DNA of 64,000 nt from a virus. Its lineage: Duplodnaviria; Caudoviricetes. The stretch covers positions 1,547 through 65,546 of the IMG/VR virus record IMGVR_UViG_3300036952_000026. One strand, 5' to 3'. Positions 4,989-39,106 of this stretch are shown piece by piece; within the stretch, counting starts at the first letter, position 1; every line of letters begins with the position of its first letter. The notes under the pieces are model-generated. The model made no database searches, was not told the DNA's origin, and was given only the letters and a program-made list of their open reading frames with translations. Both the position numbers and the translations under genes were made by a program.

Positions 4989-7736
4989 CTATTCCTCACC
5001 GTTCATGGCTCGGTCCAGTGTGGATACTGACACACCCAACGCTGCTGCTACCTGCTGCCTCGTGTACTTACCAGATGCAAGCATGGACTCAGCCCTTGCT
5101 GCCTTGGTGTTGGACATCAGTCGCTTAGGCTTTGGTGTAGCCAGCTTCTTGACCTTGTCAATGTCCGTGTGTTTGAGGATGTCCTTGAGCCTGGCATTAC
5201 TAACAGCACCAGCCTGGATAGCTTCCCACTCACGATCACTGATCTCGATCATTGTCTTACCTGCACCAGTACGCTTACGTGCCAGCTCTAGGTGGCGGAA
5301 CTCAATGCGCTGAAGGTGTTCTCTATCAAGGTTCTTGTTGGACTGTTTGATAGCCCGAACCTGGGCACCGGCGATTACCTGGGCGGCTCGCTCACGAGGG
5401 GCGTTAAGCTGGGCGGTGTGCAACTTAGACGCCAACGATTCCACCTCACCAGCATACACCTTCTTGGCATGGCTGGATTGGGTAAGGTTGGGGGTCTTAG
5501 ATGCCTCGAGCCTAGCCTTGTTGGCCATACCCTTGAACTTGTTCGAATGATCTGCATACAACTTCTCAATGGGGTGCTTAGTAGAGAGGGTGTGTGCATC
5601 ATCCGTGTTAGCCAGACGCTTAACTTCAATCGTCTTAGGAACCACAGTACCATCACGACTGGTCCTTGTCTTACCCGTAGGTACGTACACAAGAGCGCCG
5701 GTCTTCGGATCGATAGGGCCGCCATCCTTAGCAGGCCGCAGCTTGCGATCAGGAATCCGTTCCTTAGCACCAGCCCTAGAGATCAGGGTAGATGCACCAC
5801 GACTATCAGGGTTAGAGGGATCGAACTGGAACTCATCCTTCAAAGCCTGAATACCAAAGTCCTTCTTGGCCTGCTTGTAATCAAGGTGGTGCTTCTCTGC
5901 ATCGATCGTCACCATCGAATACTTAACAGCCCGAAGAATCTTGTCATCAGACGCACCACGAATGGTCATGTCAGTAATGAGGTTTGAGGCCTCACCCATG
6001 ATTCGACCAGTCGTAGCAGAAGGATCCTTGTGATCCCTAATGCCAGGGGCATCATCTGCCAGCTTGTACAGACGCTTAGGTTCGAACCCCTTAAGTCCTT
6101 CAAGCATTGGCTTAGAGCGCAGCTTTCCAGAGTTGTTGGGAATCACGATGACCGTATCGCCATCGAAGTCCGCACCAGAAAGACGTTCAGCCACATCGGG
6201 GTGAATACCGATAGCATCAATCGAATCTAGACCAATCATCTTTCGTGCAGCACGATGTGCGTTGTTCACCACGAGTTCAGGAATCTCAAACGGCCCGCCA
6301 TGGGGATACCGAATGAGCGCAACCCTTGTGCCGTCTGCGTAACCAGGAGCAAACACTTCTGTCGGCTTCATCTTGTCAACTGGAAGGATTACGTGCCAAG
6401 CACTATCCTTGGTCAACGACACAGCATTGAGATGCACAGCGGCGTTATCGGTCTCACCAGCAAACGCCTCAAGCAACTTCTTCTTAACCGTAGGGTTGGT
6501 AAGACCCTTGATCTCATCGAACTCTTTCTGTCGCTTGTCTTGCGTCTTAGCCAGTTGCTCTCGAACAAGAGCGCCACTCTGCTTTGACAAGACCTGCGTA
6601 GAGATCGACTTTGACCAATCCTTCCATGCGCCTTCACCATTGACGATGTTCATCGCCGAGATGTTGACTTCGTTCTCTTCGCCGGTATTCTTGGTGATCT
6701 GTCGAACTACGGCGCCGAAAGGGAGTTCGCTGTCCTTCTTGATCTCCTTCATTGCCCCGAGCTTACCGTTCTCGAGAACCTTAGGATCGGTCTTACTCTT
6801 GTTGGTATTGAACTCGAGATCCACACCAGCAGGAAGATCGTCCTTGTAAATCGCCATACCCTTGAGGTAATGACCATCACCGACCTGGATTCGAACCTGC
6901 GCATACCGGTTCTCACCGAGCGACAGATCCTTTGCGCCGGGACGGACATAGATCACACCATCAGCCTTCGTTCCACCTTCTTCGGCATAACGAACCTTGA
7001 CCCGCTTGGGGTCCACAGGAATTGGGTCGTGCTTCTTCGACCACTTCTTACCACCATCAATGGAGAAACGATCGAGTTGCTGAACCTCATAGCGATTCAT
7101 GAAGAGATCGTGCTGTGTCGTACCAGGAGGACACAACACCTTGAGTTCGGTCTCATGCTTGGTACCGAGCTGAGGGATCTTCACCTTTTCAACGACGTAT
7201 CCCTGCTGCTTCAAGACATCAACGGAAGCGCGAAGCTTTTCCTTACTGATGCCGAGATGGTTCTCCACACCCTCACCGATGTCGATGTACTGCTTGCGAT
7301 CGACTTCATCCTTGAGCATGTTGGCTGTACCGATGAGAGAAGAGGCCTTCTCTGCGGCATCGGGTGCCAAGAGGGTACGTACGGTAGACTCTTTGGTCTT
7401 GGATCCGTACATTTGCAGAGCAATCTCACTATTGGACATTCCCTTGTCCTTGAGTTTCCTTGCGGTGTGGATCTGCTCTTGCTTTGCCGCATTACGTTCG
7501 ATGGTCATCCGGGCACGGAACTCTCCGCTCTTCATGCCCATGCCTTCGTAGATCTGCTTGTCGGTGAGGTTGTTTGGTGGCCTACGACATTCCTTCACCA
7601 GATCTAGCCACGTGAGGTTTCTCTGATTCATGTAGGACTGATGGTCCCCACCACTACCCCATGGGTAACGGCCCGACTTACGAGGCGTCCCGTAGTGCTT
7701 GATCTCTTCTGCTTTGAATACCACCACAGGGTTCAC
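4989..7736 (-). CDS. single-subunit double-psi-beta-barrel RNA polymerase (YonO/QDE-1-like superfamily) with N- and C-terminal HTH motifs
   Basis: Catalytic LSGADFDGD (DFDGD at 6156-6170) preceded by VALIRYPH; first-barrel motifs ADGVIYVR and QVRI..YLKGMA; HTHs KGMSNSEIALQM and YTRQQVAAALGVSVSTL. Confidence 0.82.
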   Translation of the reverse strand: MNPVVVFKAEEIKHYGTPRKSGRYPWGSGGDHQSYMNQRNLTWLDLVKECRRPPNNLTDKQIYEGMGMKSGEFRARMTIERNAAKQEQIHTARKLKDKGMSNSEIALQMYGSKTKESTVRTLLAPDAAEKASSLIGTANMLKDEVDRKQYIDIGEGVENHLGISKEKLRASVDVLKQQGYVVEKVKIPQLGTKHETELKVLCPPGTTQHDLFMNRYEVQQLDRFSIDGGKKWSKKHDPIPVDPKRVKVRYAEEGGTKADGVIYVRPGAKDLSLGENRYAQVRIQVGDGHYLKGMAIYKDDLPAGVDLEFNTNKSKTDPKVLENGKLGAMKEIKKDSELPFGAVVRQITKNTGEENEVNISAMNIVNGEGAWKDWSKSISTQVLSKQSGALVREQLAKTQDKRQKEFDEIKGLTNPTVKKKLLEAFAGETDNAAVHLNAVSLTKDSAWHVILPVDKMKPTEVFAPGYADGTRVALIRYPHGGPFEIPELVVNNAHRAARKMIGLDSIDAIGIHPDVAERLSGADFDGDTVIVIPNNSGKLRSKPMLEGLKGFEPKRLYKLADDAPGIRDHKDPSATTGRIMGEASNLITDMTIRGASDDKILRAVKYSMVTIDAEKHHLDYKQAKKDFGIQALKDEFQFDPSNPDSRGASTLISRAGAKERIPDRKLRPAKDGGPIDPKTGALVYVPTGKTRTSRDGTVVPKTIEVKRLANTDDAHTLSTKHPIEKLYADHSNKFKGMANKARLEASKTPNLTQSSHAKKVYAGEVESLASKLHTAQLNAPRERAAQVIAGAQVRAIKQSNKNLDREHLQRIEFRHLELARKRTGAGKTMIEISDREWEAIQAGAVSNARLKDILKHTDIDKVKKLATPKPKRLMSNTKAARAESMLASGKYTRQQVAAALGVSVSTLDRAMNGEE

Positions 7737-24260: not shown

Positions 24261-24303
24261 GGGTTTCTCCTGGGGGTTGGTTCTCATTACAACCGCTGCA
24301 GAT

Positions 24304-24438
24304 CCTGCGAGAACAAAAGGAAAATACGTGTAGGAACAACGAGCGGGGCCAGAATAACAAGTGTGGACACCACCTGTTAAACCGGCCCCGCCGTCTGTCA
24401 GCGGACTACCTCCTCGCTATCACCCCGGGGGATGACCC
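24304..24438 (-). repeat. structured element copy 2 (variable 21-nt hairpin)
   Basis: One mismatch to copy 1 across 114 conserved nt. Confidence 0.85.
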
Positions 24439-24461: not shown

Positions 24462-25037
24462 CTAGTACCGCTCTTCTCCTCGGATGCCCAGCGCGTCACG
24501 CTGTTCACGCGAGAAGGTCTTTCCACCCTCACCTTCGCGACGCGGAAGAACCAGCGACTTGACCGCCCACATGACGGTCTCCTCGAGATGGACCTTGGCT
24601 TGCGCGGTCTCGGGGGTGTCTCGGGTCACGCGATCGATCAGCTCACAGAGCTCGTCGGCCTTGTGACGGATCTCCATGATGCGCTCGAGGTTGGCTTCAT
24701 CCGGGGCGTGGTTGGTCAGCGACATGGCGAGGCTGGACTGAAGCGGCTCGTCGAGCTCCTTGGACCGATGCTTGGCCCGGATCGATCGCACCGACTGCTG
24801 GGTGATCCCAAGTGCTTCGCCGATGTCCGCATCGTTGAGACCTTCTTCGGTCATGTCGAGGATGCGTCGAAGCCTCCACTGGGCTTCGGTCTCGTCGTAC
24901 TGACGAAGCTCCTGAGCTCGGTAGTCCTGGGGCAGTCCAGCGTCGCTCTTCTCACCCTCGTCGGGGTCGGGCTTCACGTCTTGGACTGGGCACGCGTGAT
25001 CGGGATCGTCAGATCCACACTTGGCGCATTGGTACAT
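24462..25037 (-). CDS. HTH plus Acb2/Tad1-like helical hairpin fusion protein
   Basis: GLNDADIGEALGITQQSV (HTH); TNHAP..ERI.EIRHKA.EL..LI...ETAQAKVHLEETVMWAVK. Confidence 0.6.
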   Translation of the reverse strand: MYQCAKCGSDDPDHACPVQDVKPDPDEGEKSDAGLPQDYRAQELRQYDETEAQWRLRRILDMTEEGLNDADIGEALGITQQSVRSIRAKHRSKELDEPLQSSLAMSLTNHAPDEANLERIMEIRHKADELCELIDRVTRDTPETAQAKVHLEETVMWAVKSLVLPRREGEGGKTFSREQRDALGIRGEERY

Positions 25038-25052: not shown

Positions 25053-25585
25053 TTATGAGTAGAACTGTTCTCGGTTGAGAACGATCCTGCTTCCTTGGTC
25101 GTTGAGCTCGGAAGTCCAGCCTTCGACGTCTCGATCGATGCCTTGGCTGTCGTAGACCTGCACTCTGGTGTCGGGTGGGACCTTCTGCAGAATTTCGATG
25201 AGCTCTGCAGCGGTCATCCGTGTGACCGCCATCTTGCGTTGGGGTGTTCCTGCGAAGCCTGCCGCATCCGCTTGAGGATCGGGACCAGCTCGTCGTAGTT
25301 GTCCCAACCATTACTCGGGTTCATGGCGCGGTACTTCTCGGGGTCTTTCTCGAGCTGCACGATGGTGGCGTCGAGGAAGGCTGCTCCGAGGTTGGCGTTG
25401 AGCCCATCGAGAACTCGGTACCAGCTGTCCTCACCCATCAGGTCGATGAAGTCCTGATCACCCGATGCCTTGATGGCTTCGAAGAGCATTCCTCCAAGGT
25501 TGTGGGTGCAGTCCTGCGTGATGACCGTTGCGCTGAACTCACTATCGATAGGGCCCGGGTACTCGAGCGTTGCATCCCATCCCAT
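25053..25585 (-). CDS. two small phage proteins (25053-25217 MTAAELIEILQKVP; 25214-25585 MGWDATLEY...NPSNGW)
   Basis: Coupled ORFs with SD; motifs typical of phage hypotheticals. Confidence 0.65.
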
Positions 25586-25679
25586 GTGTTTCTCCTTTGT
25601 TGTTTTCGGTCTACCCCGGCGTCTGGACAACCACCGGGGAGAGGGGCGTTTAACCCCTAAGCATCAGGATCACCTCCTT

Positions 25680-26575
25680 CCGCTATTACGATCTGGTCCG
25701 TACGCCCACGGTGGACCAATCCGCTGAGACACCGCGAGCCCAGGAGGAAGCTCTGCAGGTGGGGCATTCTCCGCGCTAGGTCATGCCAAGCAGCGGGAGA
25801 TTCATGCACGGCCGGGTCTCTACTCACGCAGTCCTCTCCTATGTAGGAGACAAAAGCCTTTGGATTCCGACATTAACCGGGCGACACTCCGGTCTGTGTA
25901 TCGCCTCGCAAACCACGATGTCACTCGTAGCGGATGCATCCCGCGAGGGTACGTGCACGGCATTAAGAACTTATCCGAGTGTGGTATTCGAAACCACGGG
26001 GTCCTCTCATAGAGCCATCAACGCTCGAGGGCAGACCTCTTGTTGACGTCACCTTTTGTCCACTCAGGCAACTCGGATATGCAAGGCTAACTAGCTGTCG
26101 ACTGGGCTCGCCCACCCACTAGCTTCCTCTAACCACTTCGATTCTCCATAACCCGTTGATAGCCCCCTCCGATGAACGGCAGGTACAGGTGGGTCATTCC
26201 GGCTTAGTGATGGATTATCAGGCTAGCTAACCAGTATGCGATCGAAGCCAGGATCACAGGTTTGCCTGGCGTGTGCGAATATGCCCTGTACATCGGACTG
26301 TCTACCGATTGTATCGCACTCATAATTCCCGCATCGGCCGACGGTGCACTCAGGCCTTGCAGTTAAAGAACTCACCCGGACGTCGTGGGCCGGATCCAGC
26401 TTCGACAGCTGATCTGATCCATGTTCACGCGACGATCTAGAGAACCTCCCTTCCTTGCGGTTTAGGGACGTCCAGGACTTGAGCACAGACGGCTTCAGAC
26501 GCATCGTCCACCATCTGCTACTCGGCGATTCGGATCAGGGTCCACGTAGGGGCGCGACCTCCTTCACCATCTACC
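25680..26575 (-). ncRNA. candidate large structured non-coding RNA (about 0.9 kb)
   Basis: No credible ORF; many hairpins, GNRA loops on the minus strand and a 9-bp long-range helix; boundaries approximate. Confidence 0.6.
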
Positions 26576-26578
26576 GAA

Positions 26579-26875
26579 CTACTTGCTGAGCGAGCCGGGG
26601 CGGTAGACCTCGGTGTACGAGCCCTCGTTCTTGCGCTTGTCAGCGACAGCGCCGGTGGCGTACAGCTCGAACTGCTTGACGCGGCGTGCGAGCCGGGACT
26701 GGGCCTTCGTCATCGGACGCTGCTTGTGCTTGGCCGCCTGGGCCTTGCGTGCGTCGTCCTCGGGGCTGCCGTCGCCAGTCACGATGATGCGCCCTGCTCC
26801 GGTGCCGCCGGGGACGCTGTGGGGGTTGAGCTGTCGCGTACGGGCTTCACCGTTCCGCTTCGCGTTGCCCTTCAC
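26579..26875 (-). CDS. basic (K/R-rich) hypothetical protein, 98 aa
   Basis: GTG start overlapping the upstream stop (GTGA). Confidence 0.7.
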   Translation of the reverse strand: MKGNAKRNGEARTRQLNPHSVPGGTGAGRIIVTGDGSPEDDARKAQAAKHKQRPMTKAQSRLARRVKQFELYATGAVADKRKNEGSYTEVYRPGSLSK

Positions 26876-27039
26876 TTGCGACCACCCTTCTTCGCACCAG
26901 CCGGCGTGCGACGACGAGCCGCAGCGCTGCCGGGGATGGTCGAGCCGAGGCCCGTCTGTCCGAGGAAGCGGTTGAAACGGGTTGCGTCGCTCTCACGCGG
27001 CGGAGCCGTCTTCGTCTGCTTGTCCTTTTCCTTACCCAT
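26872..27039 (-). CDS. basic 55-aa protein MGKEKDKQTK...AKKGGRK
   Basis: Hand translation; AAGGAG SD; directly downstream of the promoter at 27128. Confidence 0.7.
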   Translation of the reverse strand: MGKEKDKQTKTAPPRESDATRFNRFLGQTGLGSTIPGSAAARRRTPAGAKKGGRK

Positions 27040-27127
27040 TGGGTTTTCTCCTTGTTGTGTGTGAGACGTTAAGAGAACTGTAGTATGGCGTCCTCATCAG
27101 CTAGGCTGATAAGGTACTACAGTATCT

Positions 27128-27155
27128 CTCATTATGAGGGTTGTAGATCTTGCGA
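27128..27155 (-). promoter_or_regulatory. phage promoter motif with structured 5' leader
   Basis: TCGCA-AGATC-TACA-ACCCTCA-TAATGAG. Confidence 0.85.
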
Positions 27156-27156
27156 G

Positions 27157-30100
27157 CTACCGCACGGTCTTGAACGCGGCGGTCGCGTCATCATGGTTGA
27201 ACCAGTGACGTACGGACTCCTGGGCCCGCTGTCGATCCCAACCCCAGGCGAGGAGCTGCATGTACCACTGCTTGGCGTTCATTCCTGGTTCTCCTTGTTG
27301 TGTTCGATCTCGAACGACACCTGAACGTGCTGTCCGATCTTGTGGGTTCCTGCCGGGGCCGCGAACGTGAACTTCTGCGCGCTCCCCCAGCGGGTGCTGT
27401 TGGAGTTGCAGATCACGAACTCGGTGTTCTCGTCGGGGTGCTTCTTGAGGAGCGTCACGGTCAGTTGCGTGATCGCCGGAGCGGGTGCTTCTGGGGGCAT
27501 TTTTCCTCCTGGTTTCTTGGGTAGGTGAACCGTCGGATTACGGTCACCATTTGATGAAAGGTAAAGCAGAATCCGGATGCGTAGTTTCCATCGACCGACC
27601 AGTGCCAGCCGTACCAGGTCTTGCGCATCCAGACTCGCTTACCCGTCGAGGCCGGCATCCGGTCGTTTGTGATCGACCGCTCGCAGTTCACCCGAGGATG
27701 GAGAGCGAGGAGTCGTTCGGGGGGCAGTCACATGCGTACCAGTCGCCTCGGCAACGGTTGCAACGGTACGAGCCATCCCTGAGCTGCGTCGCCTCATCTT
27801 CTGTCGGAACTGGACAGCCTTCCATTGCTCCTCCTGGTTGCGGATATAGTCGCTGACGACGGGTGCGACCAACGCGGTAAGCACGAAGAACACCGTCGCG
27901 ACTTGGAACAGGAACCGAACCACGAGCCAGAAGCCCGTGTGGTAGTCCTGCCCAAGGGTGAACCCCGTGGCAAACACCAGGAAGATCACCCACTTGAAAC
28001 GCTTGTCTTGATTCATATGGCGAAAGCCTTTCCGTCCATCTTGATTGTTCTTCCTGTGACCCACCGAAGGCCCTCGCACTGACGACAGACCAACTCCACG
28101 GGAGTATCGAGTCGTAGCGAAGAGCTTCGGATGGAGACGTCTTCCTCTTCTTGGTAGTGACCACATTCCTGGAACTCGAATATGACGGAAGTACGAATCT
28201 TCTCGTCGTCCTCGAGCACCCGATGATCACCGTAATCCACGACGGCTACCATCCGAATATGACCATCCCGATGTAGTTGAAGAACCTGCGTAGCCGCCTC
28301 ATCCGAAGTTCCGGTAGAGGAGGTACGTGATTCCCAACAAGAAGAAGCCGAACGCGAGTCCGATTGCCAACACTGAGTAGAAGATCACCGCCGGGGCTTC
28401 ATCGACCCAGCTCGTCATCTGCTCGTAGAGACTGAGCTCTTCCTCGGGTGCCAGGGCTTCGGCCATTCGTCGGCGATCTTCCGCGGCAACGACCTGGTCC
28501 CAGTTCACCTTGCTCCAGTCGACCTCGTCCAACCAGCTGATGGCGGCTTGATCGATTGGGGTGTTCTCGATGCCCTCGCCGTCACACCAGAAGACCTGGT
28601 CGGCATGGGTGTAGTCGTGGGGTGGATGATCCTCGCCATCGAGAGCGAGATCGCACGGGGTGCTAGTGGTCCATCGGGCCATGTTTTCTTCTCCTGTTGT
28701 TGGGGCTTAGAAAGCCCAGTCCCACACGGCGTCAACCGCTGCGAACATGAGGATGCAGAAGATCACGAAGATCGCAATCCAGAACACGCATCCGAAGCAG
28801 CCGACTTCCTTGGTTTGGGTTGTTGCCATCAGTAGTTCTCCCATCCGTTGTTCCACATCTCCGTCTTGATGGCGAGGATGTCGTCTTGGTTGTGGTAGTT
28901 GCAGTCCTGAGCGATCTCAAGGGATCCTTGTCCCTGCTTGAGGCCTCTCTGGATCCTGGTCTTCTCGAGGTCCTTCCGAACCCGGTCGGTCCAGTCGATG
29001 ATGCGCTGGCCATACACACGGAGGATGATCAGCTTCCAGACCACCTGCCAGATGACACAGCCGATGATGACGCCAAGAAGGACGGTCTTCATCGGTTCGC
29101 CACCCGGCTCTTGTGCGCGATCTTGCCGCGACGACGGTTGCGCTCCTTGCGCTTGGCCGGCGGGGACTGTGTGGGCTTCCACTCCCAGCGGTCGCGCATG
29201 ACCGTTCCGTCCGCCTTGTGACGGGTGCGCCACTGCCAGAACTTCTTCTGCCGGCGGTTCTCGGCTCGCCGCTCGGCCCGGTTGGGCTCACGGTAAGCAG
29301 GACGAAGATCGAGGTCCGGGTTGGTGTCCTTGGTGATCGTCTTGCCGAGCATGTGCTTGAAGGGATTTTCCATGTTCTTCTCCTGTTGTTGGGTGAATTA
29401 CTTCTTGAAGATGTGCTTCAACGGCTTGATCTCGATCTGCGTCGAGCCTCCGGAAACGATCGACAGAGCGACCGCGGCAGTGAGGACGTAGCCAACGTAT
29501 CGGGTGACCTTGAGCGCGGCTCGAGCCGCAGTGGAATTACGCATCGACATCGATGTCTCCGTTCAGTTCTCTGGCGGTCTCCAGACGCTCACCAACGGCT
29601 TGCATCATGAAGTTGAACTCGCTGCCGATCCGGCGGACGACCTCTTCTGGCACGAGATCGGGATCGTCAACGATGTCAGAACACGCTTCCGCGCAGTTCT
29701 GCGTGACCGTGAGCACCTCTGCGACGAGGTGCGCGTTCTTCTCGGCGACCTTGTTGGCCTGCCGGAGCTTGATCACAGCAACCGTGGTGCTCACGGCCTG
29801 CATGGCCACCGAACCCAAGGCGACTTCTCGCCAAGGCACCACGTTGAGATTGATTCTCTTCATTCGTTTCTCCTTTGTTGGAATATGAGCGGCATACGTT
29901 CGCCCCAGGTATGCCAGCCGGGTAGGAGGGTGCAGGTCTCAGCCGGAGCCCACACCAGCGATCAGCCAGCGTTGAACGATGCGAGAACAACGCCGGGTGG
30001 GACCTTGCCCGTGGGCACGCCAAGCTTGAGGCAAGTCGTCTGGGTTCGGTCCAAGAACTCGGGGTTGAGGGCCCGAGTGCTGTCTTCTTCTCCACCCCAT

Positions 30101-30727: not shown

Positions 30728-30858
30728 TCTTGTTTCTCCTGTTGTTGGGTTGTGTTGGTATTACATTTGAGGACCCGTAGGGACACCTAATCCCCTCTTC
30801 CACGACTTCACAGGGAGCGGTCGCAGGCGTGCTTAAAGGCTATACACTAGGGGTCCAG

Positions 30859-31308
30859 TGGAGGTGGGGGGAATCGAACCCCCGTCCACGATGGCTTTCT
30901 GTACACACATCTACATGGTAGCTGGTTTGATGAGCCAGCACTCGGGGCCAAACCGGGTAGGGTTTGACGCTCCACCACTCAGTCTTTCCTGAGAGTCAAT
31001 GTTTTAGCCAGTGTTGCTGTTTCAAACCCGCTGGCAGGTCATGCGAGCAGTCTGACTAGGTCAGACGGCGACCGAAGCATCGGCGAAGAACGCCTCAGCC
31101 TCAGCGTCGAAGTTAGCCATGGCGTCAGCCACAACCAGATCCTCGACAGCAGCCTCGAAGGCTGCATCATTCGCAACGGCAACGTGATCGTTGGCGTTTA
31201 ATGGTTGAAGTAGCTGTTGTTTAGGCCGAAGCCAACCAGTCTGCCACTTCCTAACTGGTCATGCAGTGCGTACGTACTCGTTCCACCATGTCGAAACCGG
31301 TCACCCCC
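30859..31308 (-). ncRNA. ssrA: phage-encoded tmRNA (450 nt), tag ORF 31061-31195
   Basis: 5' GGGGGTGACCGGTTTCGAC; 3' GGACGGGGGTTCGATTCCCCCCACCTCCA; 7-bp acceptor stem with G3.U and A discriminator; ATTAAAC precedes the GCC resume codon. Confidence 0.95.
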
Positions 31309-35305: not shown

Positions 35306-38300
35306 TCATGAAACGAACCACTCGTAAGTACGACCGCTGGCTTCCGCCTGCTTAACGATCGCTGCCTGTGCGCTATCCAGGAGCTTCTGGAAATATGTCA
35401 TGTCGACAATGAGATCCTGCTCCTTGTTTCTGAACTGTGCCATGTCTCGGGTAATCCACTTGAACCCCTTGGTACCTGAGACGGTAGACATCTTTCCATC
35501 CGGCGCGATACGCCAGACATCTGCACCACCGGTAGCCACTGGCATGAACGAACCAGTTCGACCGATATGGATCATCTCTTCGGGCTTGCCGTTCCCCTCG
35601 AAGTCGAGGTACATGCCGCTCTGGACAACGCTCTTTCTCTCGCAGTAGTCATCGAATACGACCTCTTCACCCGAGAACAGGGTCTTGAAGACGTACGGGT
35701 GCTGGAACTGTGCACCAACCGCTTCCCACTTCTGCTTATCAGGATCGTGCGCGATATAGACCGCGTCGTTCGTGAGGCAGAACCGGTCGTAGGTCGACTC
35801 ATGCTCGAAGTCGTAGCCGTAGTGCCGTCCGAACTCGAAGACGATCGGGATCGGGTCCGCCATCCCCTCAACGAGAGGAATCTTGATCGAGTCCGTCTTG
35901 ATATGGACGACCTGGTAGCCCAAGCTTTGCATGTGGTTCTTCAGGTCGATCATGAACAAGGCACCACGCTTTGCAACGATGTTGTCCTTGTTCCTGAGGT
36001 CCCGGAAGGCGTTGTCAAACTTCGCACTCGTCAGACCGTAGACGATGTTAATCACGATCTTCAGAGCGTACGAGAGCTCCTTCGCCTCATCGTCATTACC
36101 CGTGAGGAAGGGTGCGAGCTTCCCATCCAGCATCGTCTTGGCCGTCTCGTAATCACGAGCCTTGATGGCCAAGCGTGCGTCGAGCAGATCCTTGAACCGT
36201 GGGGTGTACGGTCCGAACAGATTCAACTCAACAATGCTGGTCGGATGCATACTTGCCACATCCAACACGGCGACGTTCTCGTACATACCAGGCTCGGCGT
36301 AGACGTAGCCGCCTTCGCTCGGGTTCTCGCCACGATATGTACTCACCCCTTGGTCGTACTCGTAGCCAGGGAACATGTCCGCAAGCTCCGTGTAGACGAA
36401 GGCATTCGATGGATTCGGATCATCTCCGAACAGGATCTTGGCGGTGTGGTTCTGCGTCGTGTGATTCACGGTGAGCCCGGACAACTCAGCAAGGATTTGC
36501 CTCGCCACGAAGTCCTGAGCACGATCCTTGAACACGGCCTCGGTGGCCATCACGTCGTTGACGCAGTATTCCTCAACACGCTTCCACAACTCCTGCGGAA
36601 CAGGCTGATCCCAGGGGAGGTCCAGCTCCGAGTGGTGAATTCCCAGCTCGATCTCAAACCACTTCAAGCTCTTCTTGACGGAACTGAAGTCGAAGATGTC
36701 GGCATAGGACAAGTTGTAAGCCTGTGCAAGGAACGCGCCCCTGTTCTCGTTCCCACCAGAAACGATCTTCTGACTACGCGCATAGAGCTCGGCGTTGCTT
36801 TCGCCAAGATATGCCGCGAGCAGAATGTGGTTGTCATACCGACGATTGTTGAAGCCGACCAACCTCTTCTGCAGGAGCGATTCAAGCTCCGAGCTAGATG
36901 GATTGATCAATCTCGCCACACCGTCGATGTCGAGTGCCTTCCAGCACACCACGAACAGGTTCGGATATACCTCGATGTCGTAGAAGACGATCGGTTCTTG
37001 TGATGCCTCGTCTCGCCCTGAGTCAGGAATCGATTCGAGATCTTTCTGTCCAACGAACTTCATCGACTGAACGATCTTCACCGATTCAGCAGACTGGTTC
37101 GTGCTCGTAAGAGCAAAGGTCAAGAGGACGGGTTTCATGTCCTCCACGTTGTAAGCGAGTCCCTCGTTGTAAGCGTCGTCGAGAACCTTCTTGATGAAAT
37201 CGACAGACGGCTTGGTATGGGGATGGAACTCTTTCCGAAGGTTCCTCTCGATCATCTCGCGGAGTCCCCGTTCTGATTGGATGCTCTTTGGTCCGATCAA
37301 AGACTTCTCCTTCTTCGGTAGACTGCCCTCGGGAAGGGGCATGATTTGCACGTTGTTGTGTGTGCTCAACTTCCTCCGAAGTGAAGCATCCCCGCGCGAA
37401 ACGAGGATATCGATTCCTGGTGCGAATTCCTTCTTCAACTCTGACGTGTCGCCAGAATATGTGTAATGGAGGTGCACCCCTCTACCACTCTTACTCGTTT
37501 CGGTGTATGTAGGTGGCCACTTAGAAGCCTCTTCGAGGTTGAGTCCGAGGTCCTTTTCGCCTTCGGCGTTTCGGAGATCGAAATCGATCACGACCAGGTT
37601 CTGTGGAACCTTGACGTAGTGCAATTGGTTGGTGTCGATGTCTGAGAGCGTCGTACTTGCCGTCGCCCACGGCTTCGGAGGAACGCCATACTCGTTTGCG
37701 GTTTGAGCAGGCGCTGTGGCGAATACCTCGTCAAATATGGACGATCCGGCCCCCAGAATGATCTCGTAGACACCCTCTGGCTTGATGGGCGTCTCCGTAG
37801 ATGGAGGAACGGGTTCCAGACCCTTGTACCCCTGGAAGTACTTTCGTACTGAAACCCCATCGACAGTTGTGCGGTCGTGGAACTCATAGAAGTAGTTACG
37901 CAGCTCCTCACGGAACTTGTACTGAGGAAGCATCTGCTTATCCACGTTCGTGGCCGTGCAGTACTCCTTGTACAAACCCCAAGCCTTCAACAGGGAGACC
38001 CCATCGTACTTTGAGAATATGTCGTTACATGCCTCTACGAAGTTGTAGAACACGTCCGTTTGCAACATCATCTGTGTCGGTCGGTACGAGCTGTAGTAGT
38101 TCTTACCCATAGCTTGGTACCTATCCAGACAATGCTTCGCAATCGCTCCAAGTTCGAACTTGACCTGGTCCATGAGTGAATGGTACAGGTCGTGCTCAAT
38201 CGTGAGACCGGTAGGGACCACGTCGATGAGCCGCCGGAGGATTCCCGACTTCGCATCTGTGATCTTCACCGGCAAGTTTGTGCCCATGAGCAAGAAGGTG

Positions 38301-39106
38301 TTAATCAGCATCCCGTAGGCTGACTTGTACTTCTCATTCATGGGAATGACCTCGTGGGCCACGATCGAGTTCAGCTTGGTGTTGTCGTAGATCTTCGACA
38401 GATCCCCGTCGTGCTGAATACCGACAAGAGGATTATCCTTGAATGCGCTGGCAGCGAAGCTGTTGTTGTTTCCAGCGAGTTCTCGGGCGTCGAACACCGT
38501 CGAATAACCCTGAAAGAGTTGTTCGATGATGTTAAGGATCGTTGACTTTCCACTACCTGGAGGTCCGTAGAACACCAGGAACTTCTGGAGGGACTTCGAA
38601 TCGCCCGACACGATTGCGCCAATAGCCCACTCAATCTTTGCTCGTTCTTCCTCGTTGTAGAGAGTACCTACGATGGTATCCCAAGCAGCATGATTCCCAT
38701 CGGCAAGAGAATATGGCAGCCGCTTCGAGGCGTAATCGGTCTTCTTAACATCGCTGTTGGCAAAGACCAGGTGTTCATCCAATGCGTGGAAGCTGTTTCC
38801 GCTGATACGGATGTAGTTCACGAACTCGCTCCACACCTTGGTGCTGTGCGATGACATGGTCGCTACCTTGTAGGGCACGCCATGCTTCGCTTCCAACTCC
38901 TGCTTTCGCCGCATGAGGTCTTCATCTACGAGTCTCACAACGTCGTAGACGTTCGTAGACCACAGTTGGCGCTCCTCGTCCCAGATCGCGTAGAACGATC
39001 CTCCACGAGTCATCAAGTCGGTCGTCGGACCAACTATCCAGTCGGGACGAAGTCGGAGAGAGCCGTCTTTCTTGTCTTCGATGATTGCAATTCTATAGAA
39101 ATCCAC
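35306..39106 (-). CDS. fused replicase: SF3 (D5-like) helicase, AEP primase and family B DNA polymerase with 3'-5' exonuclease
   Basis: YGPPGSGKST; ETSKSGRGVHLHY; FYDIEVY/GFNNRRYD (Exo I/II); LDVASMHPT, KIVINIVYG, IKTDSI (PolB A/B/C). Confidence 0.9.
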   Translation of the reverse strand: MDFYRIAIIEDKKDGSLRLRPDWIVGPTTDLMTRGGSFYAIWDEERQLWSTNVYDVVRLVDEDLMRRKQELEAKHGVPYKVATMSSHSTKVWSEFVNYIRISGNSFHALDEHLVFANSDVKKTDYASKRLPYSLADGNHAAWDTIVGTLYNEEERAKIEWAIGAIVSGDSKSLQKFLVFYGPPGSGKSTILNIIEQLFQGYSTVFDARELAGNNNSFAASAFKDNPLVGIQHDGDLSKIYDNTKLNSIVAHEVIPMNEKYKSAYGMLINTFLLMGTNLPVKITDAKSGILRRLIDVVPTGLTIEHDLYHSLMDQVKFELGAIAKHCLDRYQAMGKNYYSSYRPTQMMLQTDVFYNFVEACNDIFSKYDGVSLLKAWGLYKEYCTATNVDKQMLPQYKFREELRNYFYEFHDRTTVDGVSVRKYFQGYKGLEPVPPSTETPIKPEGVYEIILGAGSSIFDEVFATAPAQTANEYGVPPKPWATASTTLSDIDTNQLHYVKVPQNLVVIDFDLRNAEGEKDLGLNLEEASKWPPTYTETSKSGRGVHLHYTYSGDTSELKKEFAPGIDILVSRGDASLRRKLSTHNNVQIMPLPEGSLPKKEKSLIGPKSIQSERGLREMIERNLRKEFHPHTKPSVDFIKKVLDDAYNEGLAYNVEDMKPVLLTFALTSTNQSAESVKIVQSMKFVGQKDLESIPDSGRDEASQEPIVFYDIEVYPNLFVVCWKALDIDGVARLINPSSSELESLLQKRLVGFNNRRYDNHILLAAYLGESNAELYARSQKIVSGGNENRGAFLAQAYNLSYADIFDFSSVKKSLKWFEIELGIHHSELDLPWDQPVPQELWKRVEEYCVNDVMATEAVFKDRAQDFVARQILAELSGLTVNHTTQNHTAKILFGDDPNPSNAFVYTELADMFPGYEYDQGVSTYRGENPSEGGYVYAEPGMYENVAVLDVASMHPTSIVELNLFGPYTPRFKDLLDARLAIKARDYETAKTMLDGKLAPFLTGNDDEAKELSYALKIVINIVYGLTSAKFDNAFRDLRNKDNIVAKRGALFMIDLKNHMQSLGYQVVHIKTDSIKIPLVEGMADPIPIVFEFGRHYGYDFEHESTYDRFCLTNDAVYIAHDPDKQKWEAVGAQFQHPYVFKTLFSGEEVVFDDYCERKSVVQSGMYLDFEGNGKPEEMIHIGRTGSFMPVATGGADVWRIAPDGKMSTVSGTKGFKWITRDMAQFRNKEQDLIVDMTYFQKLLDSAQAAIVKQAEASGRTYEWFVS

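Follow-up and report, generated by a model that had tools for sequence, protein, structure and literature searches.

A gene-free block of about 0.9 kb in the genome of a tailed phage (Caudoviricetes) appears, on comparison with related sequences, to be a real and conserved minus-strand locus of structured RNA that carries an unclassified mimic of transfer RNA (tRNA). The block lies in a window of 64,000 nucleotides (nt), i.e., bases 1547–65546 of the 65,546-bp IMG/VR virus record IMGVR_UViG_3300036952_000026, and all positions given below refer to this window unless another sequence is named. A preceding inspection of the letters alone (henceforth the sequence-only reading) had proposed one giant structured non-coding RNA at 25680–26575, in the size class of the phage-associated GOLLD and ROOL RNAs. 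This proposal was supported in part: the block looks less like one GOLLD/ROOL-like giant RNA than like a chain of separate folded modules, and it is the best-conserved DNA in its neighbourhood. We lean towards a reading in which 25692–26578 (minus strand) strings together three conserved modules of structured RNA (A1, A2, and B), which would be co-transcribed in one operon and act as separate units, with a non-decoding tRNA mimic at the heart of module B and a presumed role in RNA cutting and translation.

Non-coding character and conservation of the block

A related metagenome contig, ERZ724509 NODE-40 (henceforth L150), was found by an exact 21-mer scan of metagenome contigs and compared with the window over 13.4 kb. 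The two sequences are colinear; their genes share 80–88% DNA identity, and identity reaches 96% over 25690–26241 and 26238–26365. Three blocks of the stretch (modules A1, A2, and B) are kept in L150 at 83–97% identity.

The 0.9-kb block is non-coding. It is bounded by the stop codon of gene P0001 and the start of gene P0004, both minus-strand genes. With the window’s long genes as training set, codon log-odds were negative in six of six frames over 25586–26578 and positive in both flanks. The sequence-only reading had called it the largest block free of open reading frames (ORFs), and the longest stretch of the window without coding signal indeed lies here (25625–26210; the runner-up measures 274 nt). 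Stop-to-stop pieces from the six frames of the block matched no Pfam or PHROG family, and no pseudogene remains were detected in any frame by the same families. A conserved reading frame was also looked for and none was found, because 1-nt indels shift the frames between window and L150: three such indels in module B join three separate frames of the window into a single ORF of L150. A protein-coding gene was rejected on the combined grounds of negative codon statistics, missing family matches, and these fused frames. Neither internal or tandem repeats, a template like that of diversity-generating retroelements, nor a second copy of the block was found in the window, and the block contained no iterons or AT-rich stretches.

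Relative to the neutral sites of neighbouring genes, the block diverges from L150 ten times less, and it is under strong selective constraint (Table 1). Module B (0.033) changes at the pace of the second codon positions of the DNA polymerase gene (0.037), and 100-nt bins over module B show 95–100% identity, which places them among the best conserved in the 13.4-kb comparison; the only fully identical 200 nt of that comparison are 25900–26100, and only the promoter and leader region (27000–27200) approaches this level. The phage’s own transfer-messenger RNA (tmRNA) is 91% identical to that of L150, i.e., less conserved than module B. None of the 19 differences between the two versions of module B falls within RNA positions 123–371 (249 nt), all being placed in the remaining ~300 nt; by our own calculation, a gap of this length would arise under a uniform spread with a chance of about 1e-5. 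Because the differences all avoid the central 249 nt, the pattern is one of graded constraint, unlike that of a recent wholesale transfer.

A tRNA-like cloverleaf inside module B

Within the invariant part of module B, 108 nt fold as a single sequence into a cloverleaf with a 9-bp acceptor stem, U8, a D-arm with GG, a T-arm (GUGGU-UUCGAAU-ACCAC), and two further arms, the loops of which can pair with each other (UCAAC with GUUGA). Two helices listed by the sequence-only reading, GTGGT/ACCAC (25981–25997) and a 9-bp helix joining 25972–80 with 26071–79, correspond to the T-arm and the acceptor stem of this cloverleaf, and both are supported by covariation. There is no canonical anticodon loop and no encoded CCA, AGUUC following the acceptor stem instead; if the would-be anticodon arm is read as a 5-bp arm, its loop is CAACAAG with A at position 33. 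Thus, of the hallmarks of a tRNA, the cloverleaf with canonical T-loop and D-loop GG is present, and the 7-nt anticodon loop (U33, purine 37) and the 7-bp acceptor stem with CCA are missing. To judge by these features, the cloverleaf does not look able to read codons and would be a tRNA mimic. ARAGORN called nothing at default or 90% thresholds and did not call the cloverleaf at 70–85%, and it called no true tRNA in the window; relaxed calls in the region were spurious and were rejected. At E ≤ 10 the tRNA model RF00005 (gathering 29 bits) did not match the cloverleaf, its only match in the genome being the tRNA-like end of the tmRNA.

L150 carries the cloverleaf without a single difference (100% identity). 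A covariance model of this element (R1) retrieved a 124-nt homologue at 26 bits (E 9e-5) in a distant phage (IMGVR_UViG_3300020050_010647, henceforth G003), whose RNA polymerase is 49% identical to that of the window. In the nested fold, 9 of 32 pairs are changed on both sides between the window and G003 and yet kept. When a 5-bp pseudoknot between the two lower loops (ACAAC with GUUGU in G003) replaces two inner nested pairs, 10 of 35 pairs are compensatory and 100% of cells are paired, compared with 31–45% in a control with slid partners. This covariation is good evidence, if not conclusive, for the predicted cloverleaf and the loop–loop helix, given that the alignment comprises two sequences and was fitted to the model.

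In G003, the homologue is located inside a tmRNA gene of 595 nt (RF00023 at 95 bits; 1117–1711 of the stretch L158, i.e., G003 37101–37695), within a 180-nt insert in one of the pseudoknot hairpins. The best match of this tmRNA is the standard, non-permuted model, and the insert takes the place of the hairpin loop. Gene forms described for tmRNA are standard, intron-containing, and permuted, and one permuted tmRNA carries an intact tRNA-Ala in its intervening sequence (PMC11915505); the layout in G003 lies outside the three forms given there. Local alignment of modules A (A1 and A2) and B to either tmRNA was no better than that of shuffled sequences, save for a 19-nt stretch in the cloverleaf. 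About 1 kb downstream of the G003 tmRNA, a pistol self-cleaving ribozyme (RF02679; L158 2711–2770, G003 38695–38754) was detected at 47.6 bits against a gathering score of 34.5.

Another R1 match, in G007, lies inside the DNA polymerase gene and was discarded. A further model (R2), run over 50 related records, returned only G003 and a weak element in G019 (L133 4907–5010, minus strand; 17 bits to the tRNA-like model), which is situated beside a tRNA-Ile(UAU) and has a long terminal stem, a canonical T-arm, and a z-score of −2.75. This element may be a third divergent member or an odd tRNA that escaped calling.

Upstream modules and RNA strand

Consensus folds of A1 (by RNAalifold) and A2 were each obtained from two sequences, those of the window and L150. 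Module A1 comprises two hairpins immediately 3′ of the P0001 stop codon and includes the conserved GAAGGAGG sequence; two of its pairs are changed on both sides (U.G to A-U, G-C to C-G), two one-sided changes preserve pairing, and seven pairs are G.U. The A1 hairpin as paired by hand is not the single-sequence minimum free energy (MFE) fold of L150, and a shorter version of it is backed by RNAalifold. Module A2 comprises three hairpins, and all five of its substitutions relative to L150 keep pairing, among them the double changes C-G to U-A and A-U to G-C, and U.G to C-G. These substitutions establish the predicted hairpin folds of both modules at the level of the compared sequences. As the many G.U pairs in the consensus folds would be A.C mismatches on the plus strand, the minus strand is the RNA strand, which upholds the orientation favoured by the sequence-only reading and agrees with all 25 copies of the promoter-like motif described below.

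Modular arrangement of the locus

Both phages share the order promoter, 55-amino acid (aa) gene, P0001, A1, variable linker, A2, a gene or none, B, again a gene or none, and a 100-aa gene. In L150, module A2 is directly followed by a DUF7448 gene of 147 aa (L150 827–1270, minus strand) that has an AAGGAGA ribosome-binding site of its own; it sits exactly between A2 and B, and a short direct repeat, TCGC(A/T)A, lies on either side of it. The variable linker between A1 and A2 (~105 nt) cannot be aligned, and its single-sequence folds differ between the window and L150. Module B ends ~20 nt ahead of a ribosome-binding site in both phages. After it, the window continues with P0004 and its ~105-nt leader, and L150 goes straight to its homologue of the 100-aa gene, followed by a gene with an Acb2/Tad1 domain. 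Hence, the RNA modules are fixed while protein genes come and go between the two phages. Since the DUF7448 gene separates A2 from B in L150 and ~105 nt cannot be aligned, the modules need not be contiguous, and this layout therefore speaks against one obligatory 0.9-kb RNA. The proposal of a giant structured RNA thus stands with respect to a structured non-coding RNA locus (slow divergence and compensatory changes in three parts) and is not supported with respect to a single molecule of ~0.9 kb; moreover, the ~105 nt at 25586–25691, a part of which it had included, are a window-specific mRNA leader that L150 lacks.

Comparison with known RNA families

All 4227 families of Rfam 15 were searched with cmscan against 25300–26900 (gathering score and E ≤ 10) and additionally against 25685–26245 alone. 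No family matched the block by gathering score or at E ≤ 10, including GOLLD, ROOL, tRNA, and tmRNA (RF00023, RF04321), so that the class membership raised by the sequence-only reading was not confirmed; ribozyme families had no match in the window either. According to bioRxiv 10.1101/2024.12.08.627333, both GOLLD and ROOL are contained in Rfam (as given in its methods), GOLLD is above 800 nt in length, its 5′ region being variable and less conserved, its 3′ region conserved, and its linker at times occupied by tRNAs, and ROOL is often found near tRNA islands. As regards location, the block resembles both classes (in phages, often by tRNA genes): it belongs to a 65.5-kb virus genome, contains a tRNA-like element, and has a tmRNA 5 kb away. 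As regards contiguity, the conserved unit, module B, measures 547 nt, and in L150 a gene breaks up the full 0.9 kb.

The likeness to GOLLD is therefore one of layout only, both being large phage non-coding RNA loci, with the tRNA-shaped element here inside the conserved module. The differences lie in the length of the conserved unit (547 nt), in the embedded element, which is no working tRNA, and in the protein gene that splits the locus in L150; nor was any sign of multimeric cages seen. ROOL (rumen-originating, ornate, large) is a pseudoknotted RNA of phages and prophages of ~0.5–0.6 kb and hence similar in size to module B; it differs in that its Rfam model does not match and in its hosts, as the present phage groups with phages of Actinobacteria by database matches. 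To our knowledge, no function has been assigned to GOLLD, ROOL, and similar large structured phage RNAs.

With class II tRNAs (RF00005), the cloverleaf shares U8, the D-loop GG, a 5-bp T-arm with a UUCGAAU loop on which the acceptor stem is stacked, and a long extra arm. It differs by the acceptor stem of 9 bp (~12 bp in G003), the absence of a 7-nt U33 anticodon loop and of CCA, and lower loops that can pair. With genes that carry a tRNA within a tmRNA it shares, through the nested G003 homologue, a tie to the ribosome-rescue RNA; in the window, however, the cloverleaf lies 5 kb from the phage’s 453-nt tmRNA and within another conserved RNA. YrlA is reportedly a Y RNA of bacteria and phages in which one domain is tRNA-like, and it resembles the present element as a non-decoding tRNA mimic in phages of Actinobacteria with an extended terminal stem. 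Against this likeness, no match was found in the Rfam library, which is believed to include YrlA, and no Ro60/Rsr gene was seen among the genes examined, the genome not having been searched for one. A group I or II intron was rejected (no Rfam match, a stop codon closing P0001, and downstream genes that are not the same in window and L150), as was a homing-endonuclease insert, the gene inserted in L150 being DUF7448 instead.

Distribution of the locus

Neither the block nor the 7.5 kb surrounding it matched any of 50,697 GenBank phages by blastn, and tblastn of P0004 against the GenBank phages likewise gave none. Related loci of P0004 and P0001 were not found in IMG/VR. Among 30 IMG/VR records related by RNA polymerase, blastn and nhmmer of the block returned only chance 14–18-mers inside genes, and exact-pattern scans of IMG/VR and GTDB genomes returned chance matches, one genuine tRNA-Asp T-arm, or the G003 lineage itself. 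The window region of 10.9–30 kb is nearly devoid of protein homologues in 12 related complete genomes.

Genome setting and neighbouring features

The DNA polymerase gene of the window shares 68% DNA identity with those of Gordonia, Arthrobacter, and Streptomyces phages, and a single-chain RNA polymerase of 915 aa (phrog_4291) is encoded at 4989–7736. A promoter-like motif, CGCA-N5-YRCA-N7-TAATGAG, occurs in 25 copies (19951–45218; 0.19 expected by chance), all on the minus strand and 17 of them within a cassette array at 19.9–24.3 kb; it is presumably read by this RNA polymerase. One copy precedes the operon (Table 1) and has a counterpart in L150 (2167–2193). No copy falls within 25586–26578, and the next one downstream is at 24283–24309.

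Table 1 Features of the locus and fraction of positions that differ from L150
Feature	Position	Strand	Fraction differing from L150	Remark
Phage-specific promoter-like motif	27128–27154	−		Heads the operon containing the RNA block
55-aa basic protein gene	26872–27039	−		First gene of the operon; ORF with AAGGAGA ribosome-binding site
P0001, 98-aa basic protein gene	26579–26875	−	0.40 (fourfold-degenerate sites)	Stop codon abuts the RNA block
Module A1	26471–26578	−	0.167	
Variable linker	26366–26470	−		Not alignable between window and L150 (48% mismatches and 43 gap columns)
Module A2	26241–26365	−	0.04	
Module B	25692–26238	−	0.033	Conserved non-coding core, 547 nt
tRNA-like cloverleaf	25972–26079	−		108 nt, inside module B; single-sequence fold is a cloverleaf
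P0004 leader	25586–25691	−		~105 nt, window-specific; missing from L150
P0004, 123-aa gene	25214–25585	−		Match to phrog_4019 at 7e-8
tmRNA	30856–31308	−	0.086	453 nt
DNA polymerase gene			0.33 (fourfold-degenerate sites)	

Promoter and leader at 27040–27160 are ~97% identical between window and L150. The leader right after the promoter (27025–27174, minus strand; 97–98% identity to L150) has a z-score of −5.5 against shuffled sequences and is the sole strongly stable local structure among the 3 kb scanned. The 55-aa basic protein has no match to any Pfam or PHROG family and is 68% identical in L150 (tblastn). P0001 is 87% identical in L150, and its homologues form eight clusters (P0005–P0012) at 79–99% identity in Logan/ENA assemblies. 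For P0004, a word-based search among 5.8 billion proteins returned only P0004 itself, and tblastn found no copy in L150. Its leader contains, in this order, the 13-mer AAGGAGGUGAUCC (25667–25679, minus strand), a four-codon mini-ORF AUG CUU AGG GGU UAA (25650–25664, minus strand) 8 nt beyond it, two GC-rich hairpins, and the ribosome-binding site of P0004. The 13-mer is what we take to be a perfect 13-nt complement of the 3′ end of 16S rRNA, and the leader could be a ribosome-loading or mRNA-stabilising segment.

The tmRNA of the phage matches RF00023 at 89.9 bits and was not called by ARAGORN. Further downstream in the same operon, a 191-aa protein (24462–25037, minus strand) combines a helix-turn-helix domain with an Acb2/Tad1 hairpin domain (PF24729, 1.4e-10), and the start of this gene was also found in L150; it is a candidate sponge fusion directed against Thoeris or the cyclic oligonucleotide-based antiphage signaling system (CBASS).

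Proposed mechanism

A shared transcript from the promoter at 27128–27154 would carry the three modules, the messages for the two small basic proteins ahead of them, and those of small accessory genes behind them. Two host enzymes, RNase P and RNase Z, recognise RNA of tRNA shape and would cut this long transcript at the cloverleaf, by analogy with tRNA punctuation and the maturation of two-piece tmRNA. Such cleavage would release the RNA on either side, make it more stable, and uncouple the messages upstream from those downstream. Either the tRNA-shaped fragment or module B as a whole could then act as a stable RNA that engages factors binding tRNA or involved in ribosome rescue, the latter being suggested by the homologous element built into the tmRNA of G003. 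That the locus is transcribed, that its RNA is processed, and that it acts in translation or host takeover is inferred. A bolder version is rather unlikely: module B would be a new class of phage RNA of ~550 nt organised around a pseudoknot-locked, non-decoding tRNA mimic, the mimic being a portable domain that can be plugged into tmRNA in place of a pseudoknot and by which phages of this lineage, with its own RNA polymerase, engage the host machinery of tRNA processing or ribosome rescue, and the invariant 250 nt forming one particle with it.

Several of the following observations weigh against a chain of structured RNA modules and its proposed processing. The helices listed by the sequence-only reading are all present (e.g., TCTCCT/AGGAGA at 25835–25850, ACCGG/CCGGT at 25876–25893, GCCAGG/CCTGGC at 26247–26270, and TGGTCC/GGACCA at 25694–25718), and the first of them is kept in L150 with one loop change only; the CTGC-GTGA-GTAG hairpin, described as a GNRA hairpin, is destroyed there. 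Beyond this, the impression that the block is packed with helices did not exceed chance: MFE z-scores of 150-nt windows on the minus strand range from −1.6 to +0.7, and those of the whole block (−1.67 and +0.06 for the minus and plus strands, respectively) and of module B (−0.98) are no better than expected of shuffled sequences, whereas the phage’s own tmRNA as control reaches −5.3. Exact 9-nt inverted repeats carry little weight, since by our estimate about two arise per 1 kb by chance. Homologues of the block (L150) and of the cloverleaf (G003) were found and compensatory pairs were seen in the cloverleaf, A1, and A2, as the sequence-only reading had suggested checking; the rest of module B gained no such support, its ~440 nt outside the cloverleaf being near-identical in both phages and hence devoid of structural evidence. 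Scoring the module B substitutions on MFE folds of the single sequences yielded no signal for the minus or the plus strand, pairs being broken as often as kept. Each comparison consists of two distinct sequences, the covariation stems from a small number of events, and the alignments had been adjusted to the structures under test. The sharp-bordered high identity could in part result from mosaic exchange between phages. No terminator-like site or promoter motif was found inside the RNA block, and cutting by RNase P and RNase Z is a purely inferred step.

Alternative explanations

The modules may be no independent RNA and only cis-acting parts of the flanking mRNAs, with A1 and A2 as protective or attenuating hairpins at a 3′ end and B as a long 5′ leader or processing site. 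We consider this unlikely. In its favour, the block lies within an operon and has neither a promoter motif nor a terminator-like site of its own, A1 begins at the P0001 stop codon and B stops shortly before a ribosome-binding site in both phages, and the conserved promoter and leader at 27040–27160 show that regulatory RNA or DNA in this phage can be ~97% conserved. The following and intervening genes, however, differ between window and L150, so that the modules are not tied to one message: the genes after B are not the same, and a gene can sit between A2 and B. A leader of 547 nt evolving at the pace of DNA polymerase second codon positions is, moreover, hard to explain by regulation alone, and in G003 the homologue of the cloverleaf belongs to a stable RNA rather than to a leader.

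That the conservation acts on DNA, the block being either a recently exchanged mosaic segment or an origin, packaging, or protein-binding site, would fit the sharp borders of the high-identity segment inside a mosaic, variable genome region as well as the weak thermodynamic signal. It is nevertheless improbable, as the differences are unevenly spread (0 in 249 nt versus 19 in the remaining ~300 nt), the A1 and A2 substitutions are compensatory in hairpins with G.U pairs, which is a signature of RNA, the cloverleaf covaries with the copy in so distant a phage as G003, and the iterons, AT-rich stretches, and repeats that were looked for are absent.

Quite improbable, too, is that the whole 0.9 kb forms one giant ornate RNA of GOLLD/ROOL type in which the L150 gene is tolerated in a peripheral linker. 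Against it stand the lack of any Rfam match even at E ≤ 10, the complete 147-aa gene with its own ribosome-binding site that parts A2 from B, the ~105 nt that are unalignable and fold differently in the two phages, the unexceptional folding energy, and the absence of a long-range helix between modules with comparative support. What speaks for it is that the block is phage-borne and in the size range (GOLLD being above 800 nt; bioRxiv 10.1101/2024.12.08.627333), that A1/A2, a variable part, and then B with its tRNA-like element resemble the GOLLD layout, and that the whole-block fold closes end to end at z = −1.67.

Finally, decaying tRNA or tmRNA genes or several very small protein genes are very improbable: although in related phages this genome region holds 1–4 tRNAs and in some cases a tmRNA, the cloverleaf fails tRNA models, and a 56-aa ORF after the AGGAGAGG motif keeps its start codon (GUG in the window, UUG in L150), the block evolves ten times more slowly than neutral sites, unlike pseudogenes, G003 retains the cloverleaf’s odd loops, with covariation, codon statistics are negative, and the upstream continuation of the 56-aa ORF changes frame between the phages.

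Significance

The locus offers a compact, testable case, namely a slow-evolving RNA of 547 nt with a tRNA-shaped core of 108 nt, a putative pseudoknot supported by covariation, and a homologue inside the tmRNA of another phage. Should the modules prove to be only signals of mRNA processing or stability, they would still be an unusually conserved example of such signals in a phage with its own single-subunit RNA polymerase and promoter. If RNase P or RNase Z, or factors with affinity for tmRNA or tRNA, are indeed recruited by the cloverleaf, phage “RNA islands” would be linked to the control of host translation or RNA processing, and such recruitment would account for the harmless reshuffling of genes between the modules.

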